From: Diploschistes diacapsis
Taxonomy: Eukaryota
DNA: 54,911 nucleotides
Direction of reading: 5' to 3'
Assembly (NCBI GenBank): GCA_023645945.1
Contig: JALAIB010000007.1
Coordinates: 1-54,911 of the forward strand
A program made the position numbers and the translations under genes. Position 1 is the stretch's first letter; every line of letters begins with the position of its first letter. Shown piece after piece: positions 1-52,832 of this stretch. The notes beneath the pieces are model-generated. The model did not search any database. It had not been told where the DNA came from and saw nothing but the letters and a program-made list of their open reading frames with translations.

Positions 1-2
1 CC

Positions 3-827
3 CACCTCAAAACTTTCCCCGTAACCGCCCTCTCCTCCTCCGCCCAGGTCCCCACCCTGGTGACCCACTCCTCCGCCATCCTCGCGCTCTTCCAACTCCA
101 CTACAACGGCTGGCACGGCTACCGCGTCGCCGGCCGCATGCTTTACGAGCTCCTCTCCCAGCACGACCCACGATTCTTCCACCTCACCTCCCCCGCGCCC
201 TTCTCCTGCCCCTCTCCCAACAGCACCGACGCCACGGACCCAAGCGCGCACGACGCCGTCGCGGCCGGCGCCTCCGTCATCTGCCTCGACGCGCCCGCCA
301 GCCTCGCGCATGCCACGAAAGCCTCGTGGCGCGCGCGCATCGCCCGCCTGCGCAGCCAGAGCGCGACCTTCTTCGGCTACGGCGCCACCATACCCATGCC
401 GTGCACGGGCTACCGCGTGCGGCCCCGGTGGCGGTACGCGGCGCCCGTCGGGGCCGCGCCGCCGCGGCTCGCGAATCCCATCCTGTTCGTGTCGCAGACG
501 CTGGACCCCATCACGCCGCTGGGCAGCGCCGAGGATGCGGCGGGCCTGTTCGAGGGGAGCGGGCTCGTGGAGGCGCAGGGGGTGGGGCATTGTAGTTTTG
601 GCTGGCCGAATGTGTGTGCGGCCTCGGAGGTGAGGCGGTATTTTCGTACGGGCGAGGTTAGCCGGGAAAGGGTGGTTTGTCCGCCGGCGGTCGGGCCGTT
701 TGAGACGGAGGCTGCGGTGAGGGAGAGGTTGGCGGGGTTTGAATTGGGGCAGGAGAGGGAGGTGCTGGAAGCGTTGGTCGGGGTGGCGGGGAATTGGCCG
801 CCCGGTTTGGATATGGGGGGGTATTGA
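3..827 (+). CDS. TAP-like alpha/beta hydrolase (Abhydrolase_4 C-terminal domain), 5'-partial
   Basis: The frame is open from position 3. It contains PILFVSQTLDPITP and GVGHCS (catalytic Asp/His region) and a C-terminal VRRYFRTG..C motif typical of tripeptidyl-aminopeptidase-like hydrolases. Confidence 0.8.
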   Translation, partial: HLKTFPVTALSSSAQVPTLVTHSSAILALFQLHYNGWHGYRVAGRMLYELLSQHDPRFFHLTSPAPFSCPSPNSTDATDPSAHDAVAAGASVICLDAPASLAHATKASWRARIARLRSQSATFFGYGATIPMPCTGYRVRPRWRYAAPVGAAPPRLANPILFVSQTLDPITPLGSAEDAAGLFEGSGLVEAQGVGHCSFGWPNVCAASEVRRYFRTGEVSRERVVCPPAVGPFETEAAVRERLAGFELGQEREVLEALVGVAGNWPPGLDMGGY

Positions 828-979
828 GTTGGTGGTGGGAATGGAGAATATGATATGTTATGTCTTAATGAAGTGGATGAGTACCTTTAAGCTATATTGC
901 TATATTGAGAGTGTGCTTCAAACATTGAGAGGCGTGTCCTATAACTTATAAAACATTACTTAACTGGGTGCAAACTAGT

Positions 980-8991: not shown

Positions 8992-9715
8992 TGAGAATTT
9001 CGCGATTCAGGGCTTCAAACCAGTAGAGAAACCATCCAGCTTGGGAATCCGAGCTTTCCCTGTGTACTATGGTTCGATAAAAGGATTTCCATGCTCATTC
9101 CCATCCATCCCCTTGTAGAGGTAAGAATAATCTGCATACCAAACACCTTTGCCGCCATTTAAGCCCACACCAGAGCTCGAGAGACGCTTCAGATCAATTA
9201 TAAATCAAACTTGAAGTTCAAGTAATTTTGGTCTATATTGCACTTGATCTGAAACATTTTTAAAGCTCTTGTACAGGCATAAAGTGGTGCAAGAGGAGTC
9301 TAAAGCCTGTTGAGTTCATCCTATTATGGCTGTAGTACATATTCTCCTTACAGTGCTCAAATAACCTTAGTACTTCAACACATAAATCGGTCGCTGCTCT
9401 TATTGTTGTCCATTGACCTTTCTTTAACTCGATCCTTCTCTGTTGGCCTTAAACACCGTTCGTGCTTGCAGAGTCTAGTACTGAGGTAGTAGAGACATGT
9501 TCGACACAGCAGAGGCAACGGCTTCCCCAATTACTTTGGCGCGAAGTTCTGTCTTAACTCTTGAAGACATGGCGTGTTAAGTACATCTATTCGGCTACAA
9601 AGTTGTATCGCAAAACATTTATCTCTCATTCATTTCATCAATCATTCATTCCATCTGTTTTCTCATTAATACTCTTGGAAGCGGAGTTATAGCGACTCAA
9701 GTGGACCTCGTCACA

Positions 9716-10708
9716 ATGCTGGGGACTGATCGGGACTTTCTTCAGGTACCTCAAGCTAACCAAGAACGAAGCTTTAAGGTACCTTCGCCACCTCGCATAT
9801 TCGTGCCGCCCCCTATCATTACTCGGGCGGTTGAGCCGTCGATGGACTTCGTCCAGCGGGTTAAAGATTTCGAATCTATTCGATTCAGCGGCCCAGATTT
9901 CCTCCAGCTGGTTACCTACGGGAATTGGAGAGCTCGTGACCATGTCATTGATTGGAAGTACGAGGAAAGGCGAACGGCACAAGAGATCCTCCCTTTCTTG
10001 TTCCTCGGCCCCGTTGCTGCTGCTAGAGACCGAGCGTGGTTGCAGGAACACGGCATCACAATGGTGCTGGGGGTGAGGGATGCACTCTCGGCACATGCGA
10101 TGTTATTGGTTCCCAAAGCACCTGCAGACCTAGGTATTCCACTCGTTCACATCAACATCAGGGGTACACCGCAACTCGTTTCTGCTTTTCCAAACGCGCT
10201 TGAAACTATCAATACCCATCTAACAGAGAGGTACAAACTTTACAAGTCTCAGCCCAAACAACCTCATATATCCAACCCGATCCCTGGGCGGGTGCTTGTT
10301 TTTTGCGAGACGGGCAATGAAAGATCAGCGACGCTTGTAGCGGCATATATCATGGCAATGTATTCAGTGGATCTAGTCAGCGCTATCCAGATTGTGCAAT
10401 CCCAGCGGTTTTGCGTTGCTATTGACGATCCTCTGAAGTGGCTTCTGAAATCTTACGAAGATATCCTAAAGGCCAAGAGGGACGTGGCAAACGCTACAAA
10501 CCAAGCTTTTGATGCGGGTATAGCGGTCAATTCGGATTATCTTGGATCTCCTCGCGAGCAACTTAAGCCAGGAATGGGAACGCGGAAACGAAGCATGGAG
10601 CAGATGAACGAAGAAGAAGTCACCATGGCTGACGCGACAGAGAACGATTCAAATACGGGTCAAGATAGTAGAAGGGCAGGAACAGCGCCATTCTCTGTAT
10701 ACTGCTAG
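9716..10708 (+). CDS. Dual-specificity phosphatase family protein (STYX-like)
   Basis: WKYEERRTAQEILPFLFLGP, a P-loop-like VLVFCETGNERSA, and AAYIM...VQSQRFC. Confidence 0.85.
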   Translation: MLGTDRDFLQVPQANQERSFKVPSPPRIFVPPPIITRAVEPSMDFVQRVKDFESIRFSGPDFLQLVTYGNWRARDHVIDWKYEERRTAQEILPFLFLGPVAAARDRAWLQEHGITMVLGVRDALSAHAMLLVPKAPADLGIPLVHINIRGTPQLVSAFPNALETINTHLTERYKLYKSQPKQPHISNPIPGRVLVFCETGNERSATLVAAYIMAMYSVDLVSAIQIVQSQRFCVAIDDPLKWLLKSYEDILKAKRDVANATNQAFDAGIAVNSDYLGSPREQLKPGMGTRKRSMEQMNEEEVTMADATENDSNTGQDSRRAGTAPFSVYC

Positions 10709-12631: not shown

Positions 12632-13997
12632 ATGTCGCAGAAGAAGATTGAAGAATGGGAAATAGAACGTTACTGGGAAATATTCTCCTCCCTGGCCGGC
12701 GGCGGCACCCACCTTGACAGCAACCAGGCCGCCAAAGTCCTCCGCAACAGCCAGCTCTCGGACGACCAGCTGGCGCGGGTATGGGATCTCGCGGACCTCG
12801 ACGACGACGGGCGGCTGGACTTTGAGGAGTTTTGCGTCGCCATGCGGCTCATATTCGACCTAGTGAACGGAGTGTGTATGCCTCTGCTCAGCTTTGGCTA
12901 CATTCCCAGCGAATGTGCGCTTTTTGGTAAAAAGAGGCTGACAATCGCTACGCTATTTGCAGGACCTCAAATCCGTCCCCTCCACACTCCCCGACTGGCT
13001 CGTGCCCTCCTCGAAAGCCCATCTCGCTCAAGCATCTCGCGCGCTCTCCGGCTCCGCCGACTCCACCTTCGCCCGCCCCGACCTCGACTCCTCCTCCGAC
13101 TCCTCCTCCGACTCGGCGCCGGGCCTGAAAGACGGCTTCGACTGGTACATGGCGCCGGCGGACAAGGGCAAATACGAAGAGATCTACTCGGCCAACGCCG
13201 ACGCGCACGGCGACATCAGCTTCTCCGGGCTGGACGCGCTGTACGCGAGCCTGGACGTGCCGGACACGGACGTGCGGTCGGCGTGGAACCTGGTCAACCC
13301 GAAGAGCAAGCCGGCGATCGGCAGGGACGCCTGCCTGGCCTTCCTGCACGTGCTGAACGGCCGGCAGGAGGGCTACCGCGTGCCGCGCTCGGTGCCGCCC
13401 TCGCTGCGCGCCTCCTGGGAGCGCGGCCAGATAGACTACCGCGTCGACCGCGTCGCGCCCGCGCCCACGCCCGCGCAGAGGTGGGGCTCCGGCGCGGACG
13501 GGGACACGGAGACGCACTCCGGCCGCAAGGCCAAGTTCGGCGAGACCTACCTCTCGCGCCTGGGGCTCGGCGGCGGGACCAACTACGCGCCCTCGGGCAC
13601 CGACTTTGGCGCCTCCTCGAGGCCGGGCGGCGGAGCACCGACGACGCCGGACTGGGAGGAGGTGCGGCTGAAGAACCAGCTGGCCGAGCTGGAGGACAAG
13701 ATTGCGCGGATAGAGCGCCGGGCGGAGGAGCGGCGGCGGGCGCGAGCGGCCGGGGGCAGGGACACGAAGCCGGCGCTTGTGAAGAGGGAGTTGGAGCAGA
13801 TGCTGGATTACAAGCGGGGGGTTTTGAGGGAGATGGAGCTGGGCGAGGGGGCGGTCAAGGAGGGGGAGACGTTGAGGGTGATTAGAGGGGAGGTGGAGAG
13901 CGTGAGGGAGCAGGTGGAGGGGCTGGAGAGGCATTGGAAGGCGAGGGAGGAGGTGTTGAGGGGGTTGAGGGAGGAGGTTGATGCCGAGAAGCGGTAG
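12632..13997 (+). CDS. END3: EH-domain endocytic protein End3; intron 12872-12962
   Basis: [20 protein letters not shown]-hand [38 protein letters not shown] motif and [17 protein letters not shown]. Confidence 0.93.
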
Positions 13998-14327
13998 GGG
14001 TTTGGAAGGGGAAGAGGCAAAAGGGGAAAGGGGGAAATCACGGTACAGGGTGGAGCCAGAGAGCTGGTTCTGTGAGGACTGTGGAGACTTTTTTTTTGAA
14101 GTGGAAGCGCTGAAGCTGGGTAAGGGCCGAGGGTGAAGGACTTATCCTCCAGCTCCTTGAGGTGGTGCGCTGAGAACCTACCCGAACAACGCTAGTAGAT
14201 ACAATGCGGCATGCTACAAGGTTGGATGCGGGAACATTCCCGTGAGTAGCTTCTCAGATATGTATATTCTGCCCTTCAAAGTAGTCGGCCTCGTCTGTTC
14301 TCGAGAAGTTTAGGTCTTCGCAGCACC

Positions 14328-16127
14328 TCACTTCTTGCCCTTCCTCCCCTGCTTCTCCGATCTCATTTCTTGCACGAAGTCCTCTACTCCCGCTAACGCA
14401 GCCTCGGGGCTGTTCTTGTGCTTGAGTAGATAACCCTGAAACTCGGCGGGAGTGAACTCGTCAGCTGGCATCCGCTCGGCAAATTGTGCCGCCATCTCTG
14501 CGATCTCGGCGTCTGACTTGCTATGATGCCGGAGGTGGAGCGCCTTTTCCTTCTCCTGGACCTTTCCTCCAGGTTCAGGTGCGGGGCTATCCGGTGGAGT
14601 AGGAAGATCCTGAGTTCGGGCGCTGGTGAGAGCTTTTTCGTCCAAGTGCTTCGGTAGGGTAACATGCCCGTTGGACTGCGTCTGCGTTTTGTGGGTGACA
14701 GTCCCCTCGGCGGAAGTGTTTGAGCTGGCCTTTGCCTCATGGTTGGAGAAAATGGCTTGGTAGATGCCTTTGATCATCGGTGCATCTGCGAAACCAAAGC
14801 GCACGGTCATATCTACACGTCCAGGCCTTAAGATGGCAGGATCCAGATTCTCCTTATGATTTGTAGTCATGCAAAGGATTCTTCCTTCGCTACTCGCCAC
14901 TCCGTCGATAATATTTAAGAAGCCACTGAGCGTGATGCCTTTCGGGCTTGCACTGTTTTCACCACCCTGCGCGCCCGCTGGGGTTTTCGCATCCGTCGGC
15001 TTCGAGTCCTCCTCACTATTCTCATCTAGACGCTTAGCAGTGACGCCGGCCGAATCTATGTCTTCAAGGAGCACGATGCATCGCCATGGCAGGTCGCGGA
15101 AGAGGTTGGCAAGCGTGTCCTCGGTCAGTGATCGCGAATTTAGACTAACAACGTAGATACGCAGACTCAGCAAACCTGCCATGGCGAAGCACAGCGAAGT
15201 TTTGCCCGTTCCAGGAGGGCCGTAGAAGAGATAGCCTCGCCGATAAGGGATGCCACGGTTGGAATACCAACGACGCGTGTATGGGTGGAGGTACTCTCTC
15301 ATGTCGTCCACGATCAGGTCTTTCTGGGTCTGGTCGAGAACGACCGTGGAAAGTGGCCGAGGCGGCCTTGACAGGCACCTTATCCATTCCATGTCCCCTG
15401 CACTGCCTCCAGATGGCTTGGTTCCTCGGTAGATGATGGTGCGATTACCATCGCGCTCGTGGTATACTCTCTGCGCTTCCTGCAGTAAGTCCTTCAGTAT
15501 TTGAGGATTGCGTCCCATGCACGAAAGGTAGATAGTCTCTGTTTTCGTTCTGTTGAAGAATCCAAGGTTGTCTTCACGCCGCCTCTCAATGGTCAAAAGA
15601 TGGTTCCTATAACGGAAAAAGTGGATACCAATGGAAGGTGTACAATGCAGTTCCTTGATCTTGTCCCAATTAGGAGGCTGGTCCTCAAGGGTTTCCCATT
15701 CTTCGTCGTCCAAACCGGTCGTGTTGTCGCACTCGTCCTCTTCTGTCCATACATGCTGGCTGTTGGTCTGTGTGCCAGCAATGAATTGAGGAGTGTTTCG
15801 GGAGAATTTCTGCTTTGAAACCCAAAACATGAGGTAATTGTACATCTCGTCATCGTAGCGTATCTCAGCAGTAGAGAAGATCCATTCGGAAAAGAAATCC
15901 CACAAGCTACGGGCGCAGTGCCTGACACCGGTTGCTATTGCAAGGAAAACGAGAGCGCTCAGCAGGTATTGCGTGATATCGATTTTGAAATAAAAAGAAA
16001 ATACGCTCGACAATATCGAGAGTCCAGGAACCAGGGTCTCAAGCATGGGAATCAAAGCATCCTGCAAATGTACAGGAGGTACATTTGTGCCTTTCCCGAA
16101 GGAGGTATTTTGATACTGATCCTCCAT
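14328..16127 (-). CDS. BCS1-like mitochondrial AAA ATPase
   Basis: BCS1_N-like region (YNYLMFWVSKQ, TPSIGIHFFRY), WYSNRGIPYRRGYLFYGPPGTGKTS (Walker A), LLEDID (Walker B) and LDPAILRPGRVD. The start is placed at MEDQ (16127). Confidence 0.9.
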   Translation of the reverse strand: MEDQYQNTSFGKGTNVPPVHLQDALIPMLETLVPGLSILSSVFSFYFKIDITQYLLSALVFLAIATGVRHCARSLWDFFSEWIFSTAEIRYDDEMYNYLMFWVSKQKFSRNTPQFIAGTQTNSQHVWTEEDECDNTTGLDDEEWETLEDQPPNWDKIKELHCTPSIGIHFFRYRNHLLTIERRREDNLGFFNRTKTETIYLSCMGRNPQILKDLLQEAQRVYHERDGNRTIIYRGTKPSGGSAGDMEWIRCLSRPPRPLSTVVLDQTQKDLIVDDMREYLHPYTRRWYSNRGIPYRRGYLFYGPPGTGKTSLCFAMAGLLSLRIYVVSLNSRSLTEDTLANLFRDLPWRCIVLLEDIDSAGVTAKRLDENSEEDSKPTDAKTPAGAQGGENSASPKGITLSGFLNIIDGVASSEGRILCMTTNHKENLDPAILRPGRVDMTVRFGFADAPMIKGIYQAIFSNHEAKASSNTSAEGTVTHKTQTQSNGHVTLPKHLDEKALTSARTQDLPTPPDSPAPEPGGKVQEKEKALHLRHHSKSDAEIAEMAAQFAERMPADEFTPAEFQGYLLKHKNSPEAALAGVEDFVQEMRSEKQGRKGKK

Positions 16128-30941: not shown

Positions 30942-32490
30942 ATGTCTGGACTCATGAACAAGGTCAAAGATGCCTTGTCCAGCAAAGACGACAAAACCCA
31001 TGATACCACAGGCACCACTGCCACTGGTAGTTCAACTCACACCGGCACCACCGGGCTTGGGTCAACTACTGCTGGAACTACCGGTTCTACCACAGCTGGC
31101 CCACACGGCTCAAATGTAGCCAACAAGGCTGATCCTCGTGTCGACAGTGACCTGGGTGAGCTATGAGGGAGACCGATCACATACCGTGTGCTAATGGGAA
31201 TGCAGACGGCGGCCGCAACATGGGTCTCAACCAGACCACTGGCCACGGTACTGGTGCTCCTGGCATAGGCGGAACTACGACCGGCTCCACGAACGCCGGA
31301 CCTCACTCATCCAGCCTTGCAAACAAGGCCGATCCTCGCGTCGATAGCGATCTTGGTATGTTTATAGCCAGCAAAAGCACTCCCAACATCACTTACTCAC
31401 AATTCCCAGATCACAGCCGCAACGCCGGTCTCAATAGAACAACTGGTGGGTATGATAGAACTACAGGGGGCACAACCACAGGACTTACTGGCGGTTCTAC
31501 TGCTGGTGGGACTGGCTCTACAACTGCTGGACCTCACTCTTCCAGCCTTGCTAACAAGGCTGATCCCCGTGTCGATAGCGACCTTGGTGAGCTCGTATCC
31601 TCGGCCCCCCCATATTGCAACAAAGTTGATGAGGTCCAGACCACAGCCGCAACGCGGGTCTAAACAGAACCACCGGCACCACTGGATACGATGGAACGAC
31701 ATCAGGTACCACTGGTGGTGGGCTGACCGGCGGTACGACCGCAGGTACTCATACTGGACACCATAGCGGACACCACGGCGGCCATCATCAAGCCGGAACG
31801 GCTGGCGGCGCCACCACCGGTATCGGTTCCACCAATGCGGGTCCCCACAACACTAACATTGCTAACGCAATCGATCCACGCGTCGACAGCGACTTGAGTG
31901 GAGGGCGTACTTTTGGCGGTAATCAGACGTCTTCTGGTACGATTGGTGGTACTCATCACGGCCATGGCACCACAACTGGGACCGGAGCAGATACAAGCGG
32001 GTTGACTGGCACCTCTGGTACTAGCGGATTGACCGGCGCCACGGGAACCATGGGCACTACCGGACAGGGTACTAGCGGATTCCCTAGCACCACCGGCACT
32101 ACTACTGGCACTTCGGTCGGAGGTGGCGCTGCTAGAGAGGACGTGTCCACGGGCAAAACTGCAGGCCCACACAAGTCTGACCTTCTTAACAAGCTTGATC
32201 CCAGAGTTGACTCGGACTTGGACGGATCCAAGACCGTTGGCGGCAACAAGACTTCTCAGTAAGTGACTTTTTTCAAATCCTCTGAACGGATACCTGACAA
32301 GATCAAGGTATTGATCCTAAGCTGTAGGGCCAACGAACCCTTGGATGCTTCCAAACACCGGCCAAGTGTCTTCCAGGATGTGCACGGGGACCCTTCAATC
32401 GAACACGACAACCCGCAACACAGCACAATCGGTCGTCACGGTGCTAGTCAAGGCAACACCACAGATGCGTACGGGTCAGGTATTCACTAG
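30942..32490 (+). CDS. Fungal dehydrin-like protein with five DPR repeats (short form ends at 32262)
   Basis: Gly/Thr-rich protein with five GPH....N..DPRVDSDL repeats. Introns 31156-31205, 31356-31409, 31587-31639 and a probable 32259-32327. Confidence 0.88.
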
Positions 32491-34450
32491 TGGTTGGAGG
32501 ATTGCATGAAAAAAGGGCATGTTTTGGGTGCTTGCAAATGGCGATGAAAAGGGGTGCTTTACAATGATACCTTAGAACGAGCATAATGAAAGCGACTACT
32601 TTGCACCCCCCCCCAAAATGCTAGAACCGGGCTCTTCTCTAAGCAGTAGCTTGCGCATTCAAGACAGGAGGGTGGGCTGTAGATATATTCCATCTTTAGT
32701 GGTTCAAGCTCCTTGGACTGCTGTGGAAGGGGTCCGTCAAGTCACGAGAGCATACGGCTAAGTGACTACGACATGTGCGGCATGAAGTTTACTGTACTAG
32801 CAAAGCCCCAGTTAAATAAACACGGGCAATAGCTCAACTGAGTGGGCACGGGCAAATCTTATATTCATGATTGGTAACCGGGTTACTAAACGTTGATCTG
32901 TTATCCTTGACCATTTCCCCCTCGGTCTGGAGATGCGTCCAGGGTCGCCTCGCGAAGGTCCATGGTGATGCAAGAGAAGAGAAAAGTCTCACCGGTGGCA
33001 TGCGAAGCTCCATTCGCAAACCTTTGGATGCCAGATCGCGAGCCCTCGTGGGGAGCCGGAGCTAATGTACCGCGCCAGGATAAGCAGCAGCAGCAGCGAC
33101 ACCCCACCTCCCCATCATTCATCCCCAGACACGACCGAGCTAAGCCTCCATGCCGGTATCGTCGGTGGCGGGGCACGACGTTGGCGCTGGGCCACCAGCC
33201 CCGCCCAGCGCTCCCGTGGTCGCGTTCCTCGAGAACCATGTTGACGGTCCCGCTGAGCTGGTTCGCCCAGGGCCATGGTCCCCGCGGGGCCCCTTGCCCC
33301 CGCGCGCTGGCGATGCCGACGTACGTGAGGCTGCCGGCCGCGCCGATGGCGAAAGGTGGGCGATGCTGTCGACGCCCCGCGCCCGACTGCGAGTCGTTGC
33401 GCCTCGAGACGTACGGCCAGTCGCCCCGCGACGCGCATCTCGCTCGGCGTCTCGCCCGGGGCGCCGTTCACGGGACCGGGAATCGTCGCGATGTTCTCGG
33501 CCAGTGGGGTGGTGAGCACGCCCGTATCAGAGGCCTGGTAGGCCGCAGAGCGTGGCGTTCGGTTTCGCGGTCTCGTCGACGCAAGTAGAGAAATGTGGTC
33601 CACGGTCAAACCAGCTGCGCGCTTTGCCACAGCTTCGGATCGAGCTCGTCTTCGGGAGAGTCTAGTGTCCCTCGCAGCCGCCGAGTTGGAGTGTGGTCCA
33701 GATTACCGCCGTAGTCGGAAGCGTAGAGGTTAATGGCGCGTTGCCGGCACAGCCGGCGGCGCAAAGAAGGCGGGCGAGAACAGAAGGATCTCAAGAAGGA
33801 CCCGACGGCAGCTAAACAAGACAGAAAAGGAGAGAGAAAATATAGGTGGTGGTAAAGAATGGAATAGTGTTTCTCAATAGTTCTTAAGAGCAAAAACGAA
33901 AAGTAAAAGTCAGGCATATGGACCACGGGAAGATCCTGCCATTGTACTCACAGCTCAAGATCGGGGAAACGCAGACAAAGAAGCTTTTGAACCAGTCAGT
34001 CACGTTTCGGCATAAAAGGAACGAGACGACCATCAAGACCGAGTCAATAACGAGGCTTCTGTAGCAAAGGCGGAAAAGGGCAATTGCCACATTCTTGTGG
34101 TGCGAGATGAAAAAAGATTGATTCCGGCTACTAGACCGTTAACTTGGCGCTGAGTTGTAATATTGCGGGGAAAAGTAACACCGAATAAAATAAATAAATG
34201 ACGTTAGCTTAGAAAGAATAATACAATAGTGACAATAAAGGGCCCGTAAAAGGGGCCGAACTGTATTGAAAAATAAACATAAATAACGGTTCGAATAACC
34301 GCTGCGAATGATTTTTTTAAAGATGATCCGCGTCAAAAGCGGCAACAAGCACTGACCAAATCTACACCGCGGCTCTGCCCACGTTCCTTCCGTATCCTCT
34401 TGAGTCTTATCTGAGAGTTCCGACAGTCTCTCTTGACTTCGGGATGACAC

Positions 34451-50945: not shown

Positions 50946-51552
50946 AGGGTGAGGGAGAGTAAAGGTACAAGTGATTTTGACCTTAGAGCAAGTGAATTTC
51001 AGTGGGCCACAGTACAAAAACACTAATCTAAGGGCAATATCGAAACAAAACATGATCTACTGGAAATCTTACGCTGGTTGAATCTTTCCCAAATAAGTCT
51101 TCCATGTGAGGTATGATGAAAGACTGCAAGGTCCAAGATGTACGTGATGAGCAAGGTGCGTAACAAGGTTCTGGAAGTGCTCTGCTGTCTTCACTCCTTG
51201 GAGCATTGAGAATATGCCCTCCAGCAGGGTGATCATTATGCTTTTTCCAATATCATCCTTAATTGTCCACGGAGTCGACATGAGCCACCAAGATACCAGC
51301 GCACCGATTTCATTGCAGCCGCTCATGACCCCGGAGCTCCTCAACTCATCGCCGCACCCATTAAATTAGGTATCAAACTTTCTATATTGGGCTGATGTGG
51401 TTCGGAAGGTTCACAAGTATTGGCTAGTCGAGTTTTGCACTCAGCCGTTCACTTTTGTTATTTTCATGATCTTTCTTGGATTACAGTTCAGTTTCATGAG
51501 TTTCCTCGGATCTGTTGCTGATTCCTCCTCAGCCATCCTAAAAAAACTCACC

Positions 51553-51840
51553 TCCCTGTCCCCCGGCACAATCAGTCTCTTCACCTCGTAACTCTCCAAC
51601 CCAATCTCCCTCCGAACAGCCTGATATCCCAGTGCCTCGGGCTGGACCACGTTATCCACCACCACGTATCCCTTCCGCAGCAGCCTCAGTTCCCGCCACG
51701 CCAGCCGGAAATCCGCCTTGTACCGCGCCTCGTCGTGGTTAAGGAATAGCATGTCGATGCCGCTCCGCGCGATTGTGCCCTGGTCGAGGAACCGTCGCAG
51801 GACGGCGGCGCCGGTGCCGAGCTCGATAGAGACGAAGAAT
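51553..51840 (-). pseudogene. Catechol O-methyltransferase-like fragment (C-terminal half only)
   Basis: IDMLFLNH..RYKADF, LLRKG.VVVDNVVQP and LIVPGD resemble the fungal COMT motifs DMLFLDH / VADNV..PG. I see no N-terminal SAM-binding ELG.Y.GYS motif upstream. Confidence 0.55.
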
Positions 51841-52832
51841 GGATAGCCCTGAGCTTGCTGGGGATCGATTGAAGTACGCTCGAACATTTGTTACCAACAA
51901 TACACTGCATAGAAATATACTGTATGGGGAGCTTGCAAGAGTGCTCTAGTGAACCCTGGTTTGCAAAACCTAGCCACGGAACTTTCTTAGATGCCTAGCG
52001 TAGGGTTTTTCCAGCCAGAGCGAGGTGTTGAGATTGACCTACGATGTCTACCAGCGTGCTGCTGCAACCTCTCTCTGGTTTCACTAAACTCCGTCATTAT
52101 GAAGTCCAACTTCCTCTGAAACAACAGCGTTCTTGAGCACCTTAGGACCGAAGGTTGCCGCTGTGTGGGTGGAATCACTCGGAATCTCTCTACACGCAAC
52201 GCACTCGCCCCAACATGCCTCGAAGATACTCCTATAGGTACATCTCCGTGTTCACCTTTGCCAGTAGCTATGCGGCCAGATCCTTAAGTACTGTATTTAT
52301 CTCCTATGATTGTCAGTCCTGTGGCAACTCCAACTACACCCGAGAGCCACTACCGGGGAGAGACGAGGAAGAGAACGAGCTCCTGAGTCGACGCCTCGCT
52401 CAAGCTCCCTGGCTGCTGTATGCTGAAGTCATTGTGGAATGACCTTCGAGAAAACGGAAGCGCGCTGTCGGGCGTCCGTCCCAAAAGTCTTTCCTCTTTA
52501 AATTTAAGGTTCTGCTTGCGATCATTCGGGCATCTGGACTCGAAGTCGGATGCCTCTCGAACATTGTCTTTGCCCTCTCGCTCGCAGTCCCGCAGGCTGC
52601 TAAGCTCTCTGCGCTTAGCGGCTGTGGCATGCTATCTCGCTGAGCTCCAGAGCGCTCTCGCGGATTCGTCGTTATTATACACCGTCACTTTCTACAAGGG
52701 AACCGTATACAGGCCGGGAGGTGGGGACACGGTTACGCAGAGACAATGGGGCGAGGTCTGCGAGAACCTGTCCAACAAATTATCATACAATTAACTCCCT
52801 AAGATGAATTTGCGGTTTCATTCCACAGTGAT

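Follow-up and report, generated by a model that had tools for sequence, protein, structure and literature searches.

When read along its coding strand, END3 of Diploschistes diacapsis passes from C-dominated to G-dominated codons through a GC-rich core, which raises the question of whether such an island is positioned by a point on the chromosome or by the gene that carries it. A first-pass annotation of the window (the whole 54,911-nucleotide stretch analysed here) had favoured the former, proposing the footprint of a bidirectional process that acts irrespective of genes, such as a replication origin or meiotic break resection with GC-biased repair. The window is one whole contig (C4029) of the 29-Mb, 4361-contig assembly of this lichen-forming fungus, and its features are collected in Table 1. 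As a locus, END3 is ordinary.

Table 1. Coordinates of END3, its compositional island and the other islands of the window
Feature	Position	Strand	Details
Second island, 3' part of TAP-like hydrolase gene (stop 827)	1..860	+	Pfam
END3 exon 1	12632..12871	+	80 codons, first EH domain; Pfam End3/EH
END3 intron	12872..12962	+	GT..AG; G/C at 44/91 bases
END3 exon 2 through stop codon	12963..13997	+	Carries the island; Pfam End3 E=5e-29
C arm	12963..13200	+	C-ending codons; four-fold C34 G11; Lys/Gln/Glu ending in G 2/8
GC core	13200..13750	+	GC 0.70-0.79; nearly every synonymous site G or C
Best-fit switch point	~13650 (350 bp upstream of END3 stop)	+	Four-fold scan
G arm	13750..14100	+	G-ending codons, Leu TTG, Arg AGG; reaches ~100-150 bp beyond stop
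BCS1-like AAA ATPase, convergent with END3	14328..16127	-	Pfam
GC island, weak switch	33061..33659	-	GC 0.73 at 33090-33600; minus-strand codon-like periodicity
Weak island, short minus-strand ORF	51441..51887	-	GC 0.63 at 51500-51830

The change from C-rich to G-rich sequence described for END3 is real. Four-fold degenerate sites in exon 2 go from C34 G11 at 800-1100 bp from the stop to C3 G19 over the final 200 bp (700-1100 bp compared with the last 300 bp: Fisher p = 1.2e-5), by way of C11 G28 at 600-800 bp, C29 G16 at 400-600 bp and C11 G25 at 200-400 bp, so that the gene has two clear ends and an alternating core and no smooth gradient. Lys, Gln and Glu codons ending in G similarly rise from 2 of 8 upstream to 21 of 21 in the final 200 bp. 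In 100-bp windows the GC skew is -0.48 at 13000-13099, about 0 over 13200-13599 and +0.74/+0.75 across 13800-13999, and the annotated G-richness beyond the stop is present as well, with a skew of +0.61 at 14000-14099 and 43 G against 10 C in 13998-14100. The 3' end of the BCS1-like gene is C-rich on the plus strand, and the END3 G arm thus stops short of that gene. The skew of neither arm was matched in any of 20,000 synonymous shuffles within the gene, in line with the view that synonymous sites have been rewritten.

GC content in the island reaches a maximum of 0.79, against about 0.50 for the window, and the core averages 0.74, where 0.58±0.013 is expected from background codon use. The core had been singled out as CpG-rich, a property that turned out not to be special to it, with an observed/expected ratio of 1.17 for CpG and 1.15 for GpC. 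Exon 1 already carries G or C at 30 of 35 four-fold sites, and the intron has 48% GC, flanked by exons whose four-fold sites are 86-98% GC. Over the last 240 nt the skew is +0.68, of which +0.38 is predicted by amino acid composition alone. The protein itself is affected: its GARP fraction is 0.37, compared with 0.28±0.035 in homologues, and with only 4 of 82 homologues equally high, the amino acids of End3 are pushed toward GC-rich codons relative to these homologues.

Of the three further places in the window where the same pattern had been claimed, the island at 1-830 is as clear as that of END3 (skew from -0.66 to +0.67), with a switch about 425 bp upstream of the stop of the TAP-like hydrolase gene and a convergent neighbour ending at 980; at 33090-33600 and 51540-51830 it is weak. 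The island at 33061-33659 has G/C-rich third positions on the minus strand, in a frame that shifts near 33430, and is probably a decayed gene. It has no match in Pfam, PDB or Rfam, and since Rfam gave 0 matches at gathering score over the window, it is not explained by a known non-coding RNA. The remnant was presumed to be lactonase-like, an identity for which neither Pfam, PDB nor the genome's two presumed lactonase loci offered support. If truly untranscribed, it would be the sole non-genic island of the window. At 51500-51700, C-rich sequence on the plus strand corresponds to the G-rich 3' end of the coding strand of the minus-strand ORF, for which the best Pfam match is Methyltransf_24 at only E=0.17.

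Contigs from a second study (X2) span both strong islands, which excludes an assembly artefact for them. In the X1 contigs, none crosses 13754-14041 and a low-depth contig covers 64-838; these gaps fit sequencing drop-out inside the islands, which contig depth cannot demonstrate. Among the 40 listed of 590 X1-X3 differences, none falls in END3 and 9 fall within 1-830. Elsewhere in the window, many loose contig ends from X1 and X2 map to 9120-9215, which suggests a short dispersed repeat, and a plus-strand gene at 30942-32490 has repeated Gly/Thr-rich units with a recurring ANKADPRVDSD motif.

Recurrence was assessed in a sample of 789 kb (including the window) and a further 200 kb held out, 989 kb in total and skewed to long contigs. 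With fixed thresholds, 33 GC islands were called in the former and 6 in the latter. As the first-pass annotation had anticipated for a genome scan of skew switches at GC peaks, the C-to-G change recurs, being present in 26 of 33 interior islands with the reverse in 1 of 33 (989 kb); in the held-out set all six islands are genic and five show C-to-G. A scan of four-fold sites, which disregards GC content, was run on gene models from a self-trained HMM (a Pfam match was obtained for 28 of 44 ORFs checked) and found a C-to-G switch in 65 of 216 genes, an enrichment over the 1-4 genes in each of five shuffles. G-to-C switches occur in 21 of 216 genes, mostly 0.55-1.6 kb from the stop, and we read them as the upstream edge of C arms. 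Switch genes lie on both strands (27 plus, 33 minus) at a density, outside AT-rich DNA, of about one per 14 kb (65 in 905 kb), and genes lacking an island carry a faint form of the same skew. The host genes are varied, including a helicase, a kinesin, a transporter and dehydrogenases.

Contigs often start G-rich or end C-rich (starts of C1, C2, C4030 and C4300; ends of C4361, C1000 and C500; window 1-400), which suggests that the assembly often breaks inside islands and that island density may be underestimated; other contig ends fall in AT-rich DNA. About 8% of the sampled bases belong to a separate AT-rich compartment with a GC content of 0.20-0.35, as is expected for repeats mutated by RIP.

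The finding of the pattern irrespective of gene strand had been taken to indicate a chromosomal point. That argument is empty, since sequence that is first C-rich and then G-rich reads the same after reverse complementation, whichever strand the gene occupies, and only position relative to genes can decide. Island centres lie inside HMM-predicted genes in 27 of 33 cases and in 6 of 6 held out, and four of the remaining six fall in Pfam-matching ORFs missed by the HMM, placing 37 of 39 in coding genes. The two islands with no assigned gene are centred near 42210 of contig C3918 and at 33353 of the window, the latter showing minus-strand codon periodicity and a frame change. The former is a C-to-G island at about 1950-2470 of locus L061 (C3918 41951-42467) with no predicted gene, and the three ORFs tested there had no Pfam match. 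A scan of 259 kb of HMM-intergenic sequence, in which the HMM misses genes, returned 12 C-to-G spots, none reaching a GC content of 0.60.

Within genes, the position follows the stop codon. In 19 of the 22 complete island genes the centre lies at most 650 bp from the stop, where 9.9 are expected (0 of 100,000 simulations), and the spread of centre distances is 392 bp to the stop versus 1242 bp to the start. Similarly, the distance to the stop is no more than 700 bp for 53 of the 65 switches (against an expected 34.2), and among genes of at least 2 kb the switch is at most 775 bp from the stop in 10 of 13 and on the 5' side in 3 of 13. The C arm follows the stop and not the ATG, from which it is separated by kilobases in long genes, and promoter-side C skew (-0.15 to -0.22) is alike in switch and non-switch genes. 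On the other side, skew in 3' non-coding DNA falls from +0.29 through +0.21, +0.14 and +0.08 to 0 past 200 bp after the stop, while GC content there is not raised (0.48 vs 0.47). A glycerol-3-phosphate dehydrogenase-like gene (L037; C1112 44001-46323, minus strand) combines a GC-rich end with a switch some 450 bp from its start.

The six convergent neighbours less than 400 bp away retain their own polarity. The downstream neighbour is convergent for 35 of 54 switch genes versus 68 of 142 others (p = 0.038), and the orientation of the upstream neighbour had no effect (25 of 54 switch genes versus 73 of 141 others). Both genes switch in 9 of 39 convergent pairs, which is above chance (p = 0.019).

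The island is thus a compositional footprint anchored at the transcription unit's 3' end, and not a gene-independent chromosomal site. The proposed independence from genes is not supported, since centres track stops, the G arm ends about 200 bp past them and END3 orthologues keep the skew in other neighbourhoods. What stands of the proposed two-directional process is that the arms are near mirror images: the unit is symmetric around a point, but genes determine where that point sits.

When genes are aligned on the switch, the A/C/G/T frequencies of four-fold sites are about 0.12/0.58/0.19/0.13 to its left and 0.13/0.21/0.52/0.14 to its right, a step that is sharpened by choosing the best change point. 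The skew steps from about -0.5 to about +0.4 and decays within about 0.9 kb, two-fold sites mirror as well, and pooled synonymous GC peaks at 0.85 (0.98 in END3). Introns within 500 bp of strong switches contain C 0.43 and G 0.11 on the left (n=12) and C 0.18 and G 0.37 on the right (n=7), compared with C 0.27 and G 0.21 in far introns (n=29), although their GC content rises only from 0.48 to 0.55. Introns therefore flip like exons, and codon choice alone is insufficient. Skew and GC3 at the 3' end are positively correlated (r 0.28-0.39 over 131 genes). Roughly 30% of genes, then, have a point 200-700 bp before the stop that divides an upstream arm with a gain of C on the coding strand from a downstream arm with a gain of G; put equivalently, either strand is enriched in G where it runs outward from the centre. 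The effect extends into introns and 200 bp beyond the stop, and alters amino acids. A repeat search found no hairpin linking the arms, the best inverted repeats (14-26 nt, 74-86%) being at chance level. Intron density is somewhat lower near the ends of island genes (11 in 14.3 kb versus 134 in 96.6 kb); conversion by spliced cDNA from the poly(A) end was considered as a source of the skew and ruled out, as introns flip too.

END3 also permits a comparison across fungi. The best 80 of 201 END3 loci formed 46 clusters, or 43 after three incomplete ones were left out. Of these 43, 37 clusters show a four-fold skew that climbs toward the stop, 29 show a sign change and only 7 have a mid-gene GC4 of at least 0.85. 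From upstream to downstream, C at Y sites falls from 0.72 to 0.41 and G at R sites increases from 0.46 to 0.77, a keto component. In these sequences the skew direction is a conserved property of END3 and the GC peak is lineage-specific. The BCS1-like neighbour was matched at none of the best 80 of 201 loci, of which only 20 clusters had 2.5 kb downstream, and neighbour orientation did not predict amplitude at 18 orthologue loci (13 vs 5, p = 1.0). In one cluster from another species, represented by six haplotypes, singleton S-to-W and W-to-S changes numbered 10:2 in END3 exon 2, compared with 21:7 in two neighbour genes (p = 0.70). A phosphatase-like gene lies upstream of END3 in the window (9716-10705) and also near END3 in five orthologue clusters (L093, L110, L122, L133 and L155), in varying order and orientation, which may represent loose synteny over distant fungi.

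The likeliest mechanism may be mutation or repair with a strand bias, acting in the zone of transcription termination, to which we give a little less than an even chance. Slow, terminating RNA polymerase II would leave the non-template strand exposed to strand-biased mutation or repair. The coding strand would acquire G from sense transcription along the gene's final few hundred bases and 3' UTR; antisense or convergent read-through entering at the 3' end would do likewise for the opposite strand farther upstream, where the mirror C arm would result. R-loops are favoured by G-rich RNA, and their formation could make the skew self-reinforcing, which could account for extremes in only some genes. 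The GC peak is probably strongest at synonymous sites because introns and UTRs must retain U/A-rich signals. This mechanism agrees with the anchoring to stops, the occurrence on both strands, the held-out islands, the decay of skew in 3' non-coding DNA, the polarity retained by close convergent neighbours, the intron flips, the excess of convergent neighbours, the climbing skew of END3 orthologues amid different neighbours and the faint form in genes lacking an island and, by analogy, with the gene-linked skew described in the accessible part of PMC3315797. Against it, mirror symmetry requires two comparable transcription directions, an added assumption, whereas such symmetry comes free with a break-centred process. 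Moreover, deamination of an exposed strand covers A-to-G and C-to-T changes but leaves the drop in T at four-fold sites (from 0.27 to 0.14) unexplained, and the excess of convergent neighbours is modest, with orientation not predictive at the 18 END3 loci.

A break-centred process, possible but doubtful in our estimation, would take the form of breaks that recur in certain genes about 400 bp ahead of the stop, followed by asymmetric GC-biased conversion. The strands resynthesised after resection would be those running outward from the centre, and if G:T and G:A mismatches were repaired to G (others being restored), or G were misinserted, the new strand would gain G. Besides the symmetry, such repair would suit the reach of about 0.9 kb, a GC gain strong enough to alter End3 amino acids, the convergent pairs in which both members switch and the patchy strength among genes and orthologues. 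GC-biased repair in its ordinary form, as put forward in the first-pass annotation, is weakened by the flat GC content of 3' non-coding DNA and the small rise in introns, although non-coding GC near islands may be held down by splicing and poly(A) signals. By our own reasoning, standard GC-biased conversion is strand-symmetric and would yield no skew while lifting non-coding GC, and deamination of resected single strands predicts the opposite polarity. In S. cerevisiae, moreover, convergent 3' regions are axis sites nearly devoid of DSBs, according to the part of PMC4268827 at hand. These mismatches, together with those of an origin discussed below, rank the termination-zone mechanism first and recombination repair second. 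The bolder proposition that mirror islands are long-lived break-repair hotspots a few hundred bases before the stop, with the new strand keeping G, distinct from promoter C skew and persisting in the same genes across filamentous ascomycetes, is rather unlikely; if true, hotspots would be readable from a single genome sequence.

Selection at the RNA level is an unlikely source of the pattern. Under it, G/C-ending codons would avoid premature poly(A) signals, and elongation or termination would favour C-poor, G-rich transcript ends. That the GC gain is mostly limited to synonymous sites, with the END3 intron left at 48% GC, fits this explanation, as do the curbing of premature polyadenylation by C/G codons in Neurospora (PMC5869017, in part) and the CTP-limitation idea raised in the accessible text of PMC3315797. 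It does not predict the mirror C arm, the intron flips or the amino-acid shifts, however, and the islands are hosted by a mixed set of genes and have arms that no specific long hairpin joins. Replication, through forks that converge or stall at gene ends (termination or head-on conflict), is quite improbable, and centres acting as origins less probable than this. Under yeast polarity, termination sites jump upward in skew, the direction seen here (PMC3459929, in part), and the keto component of END3 orthologues and the frequency of about one switch per 14 kb are compatible with such a role. A yeast-type origin, another suggestion of the annotation, is disfavoured by polarity, size and reach: in the available part of PMC3459929, origin jumps reach about 9%, fade across about 20 kb and carry the opposite sign, although yeast polarity may not be that of Pezizomycotina, and conservation of one site within END3 among distant fungi with different neighbours would be unexpected. 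Finally, amino-acid composition or assembly artefact is refuted as a whole explanation and highly improbable, for although about half of the terminal G skew of END3 stems from a Glu/Arg/Gly-rich coiled coil, the skew is present at four-fold sites, in introns and in 3' non-coding DNA, 65 genes pass versus 1-4 in shuffles, and X2 contigs span the islands.

Several known systems share parts of this pattern. In yeast, the leading strand is A+C rich and skew jumps at origins (Marsolier-Kergoat 2012, PMC3459929); as far as the available text goes, these jumps resemble the present switches in being symmetric around a point, and termination sites have the same sign, whereas the switches described here are intragenic, close to stops and spaced about 14 kb apart, with G-to-C in only 1 of 33. 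The Candida centromere jumps treated in the same source are likewise large (74%) and local (3 kb), and were judged unrelated to replication. Human CpG islands, where strand asymmetry extends in both directions alongside GC-biased conversion (Polak and Arndt 2009, PMC2817419, in part), similarly combine a GC peak with mirror asymmetries, but are promoter-linked, long-range and CpG-defined, in contrast to the 3'-anchored units of less than 1 kb without CpG excess over GpC found here. The C/G codon bias of Neurospora (Zhou et al. 2018, PMC5869017) also ties G/C-ending codons to termination in a filamentous ascomycete, although the portion of that paper at hand mentions neither a strand switch nor a local island at the 3' end. 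A literature search, with most subscription journals outside its scope, returned no account, for filamentous fungi, of mirror GC islands with 3' anchoring.

The closest relative is the skew reported by McLean and Tirosh (2011, PMC3315797), who, in the text accessible to us, describe coding-strand C bias at the 5' ends and G bias at the 3' ends of genes in most fungi examined, and left its cause open at the time. In both systems the coding strand, for genes in either orientation, has a C bias upstream and a G bias at its 3' end; the effect is seen at four-fold sites, in amino acids and in the 3' UTR; and a subset of genes is involved (33% in C. albicans and, under another test, 65 of 216 here). 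The direction is likewise common to fungi, which in the present work is drawn from END3 only (37 of 43 clusters from the best 80 of 201 loci). Judging from the same partial text, the systems differ in that C bias there peaks at the promoter, whereas here a separate C arm lies 0.5-1.3 kb before the stop and mirrors the G arm, and in that skew there shows a negative correlation with GC content. The correlation here is positive, at a peak of synonymous GC, which marks the islands as a variant of the published pattern. As a local mirror unit with a definable centre near the stop, they lead models based on transcription, recombination and fork termination to different predictions. They also testify to a pressure able to alter the amino acids of a conserved endocytic protein, and can mislead analyses of codon bias, selection and phylogeny in fungi. 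The pattern is real, recurrent and gene-anchored, a strong, mirror-shaped form of the published fungal gene-end skew.
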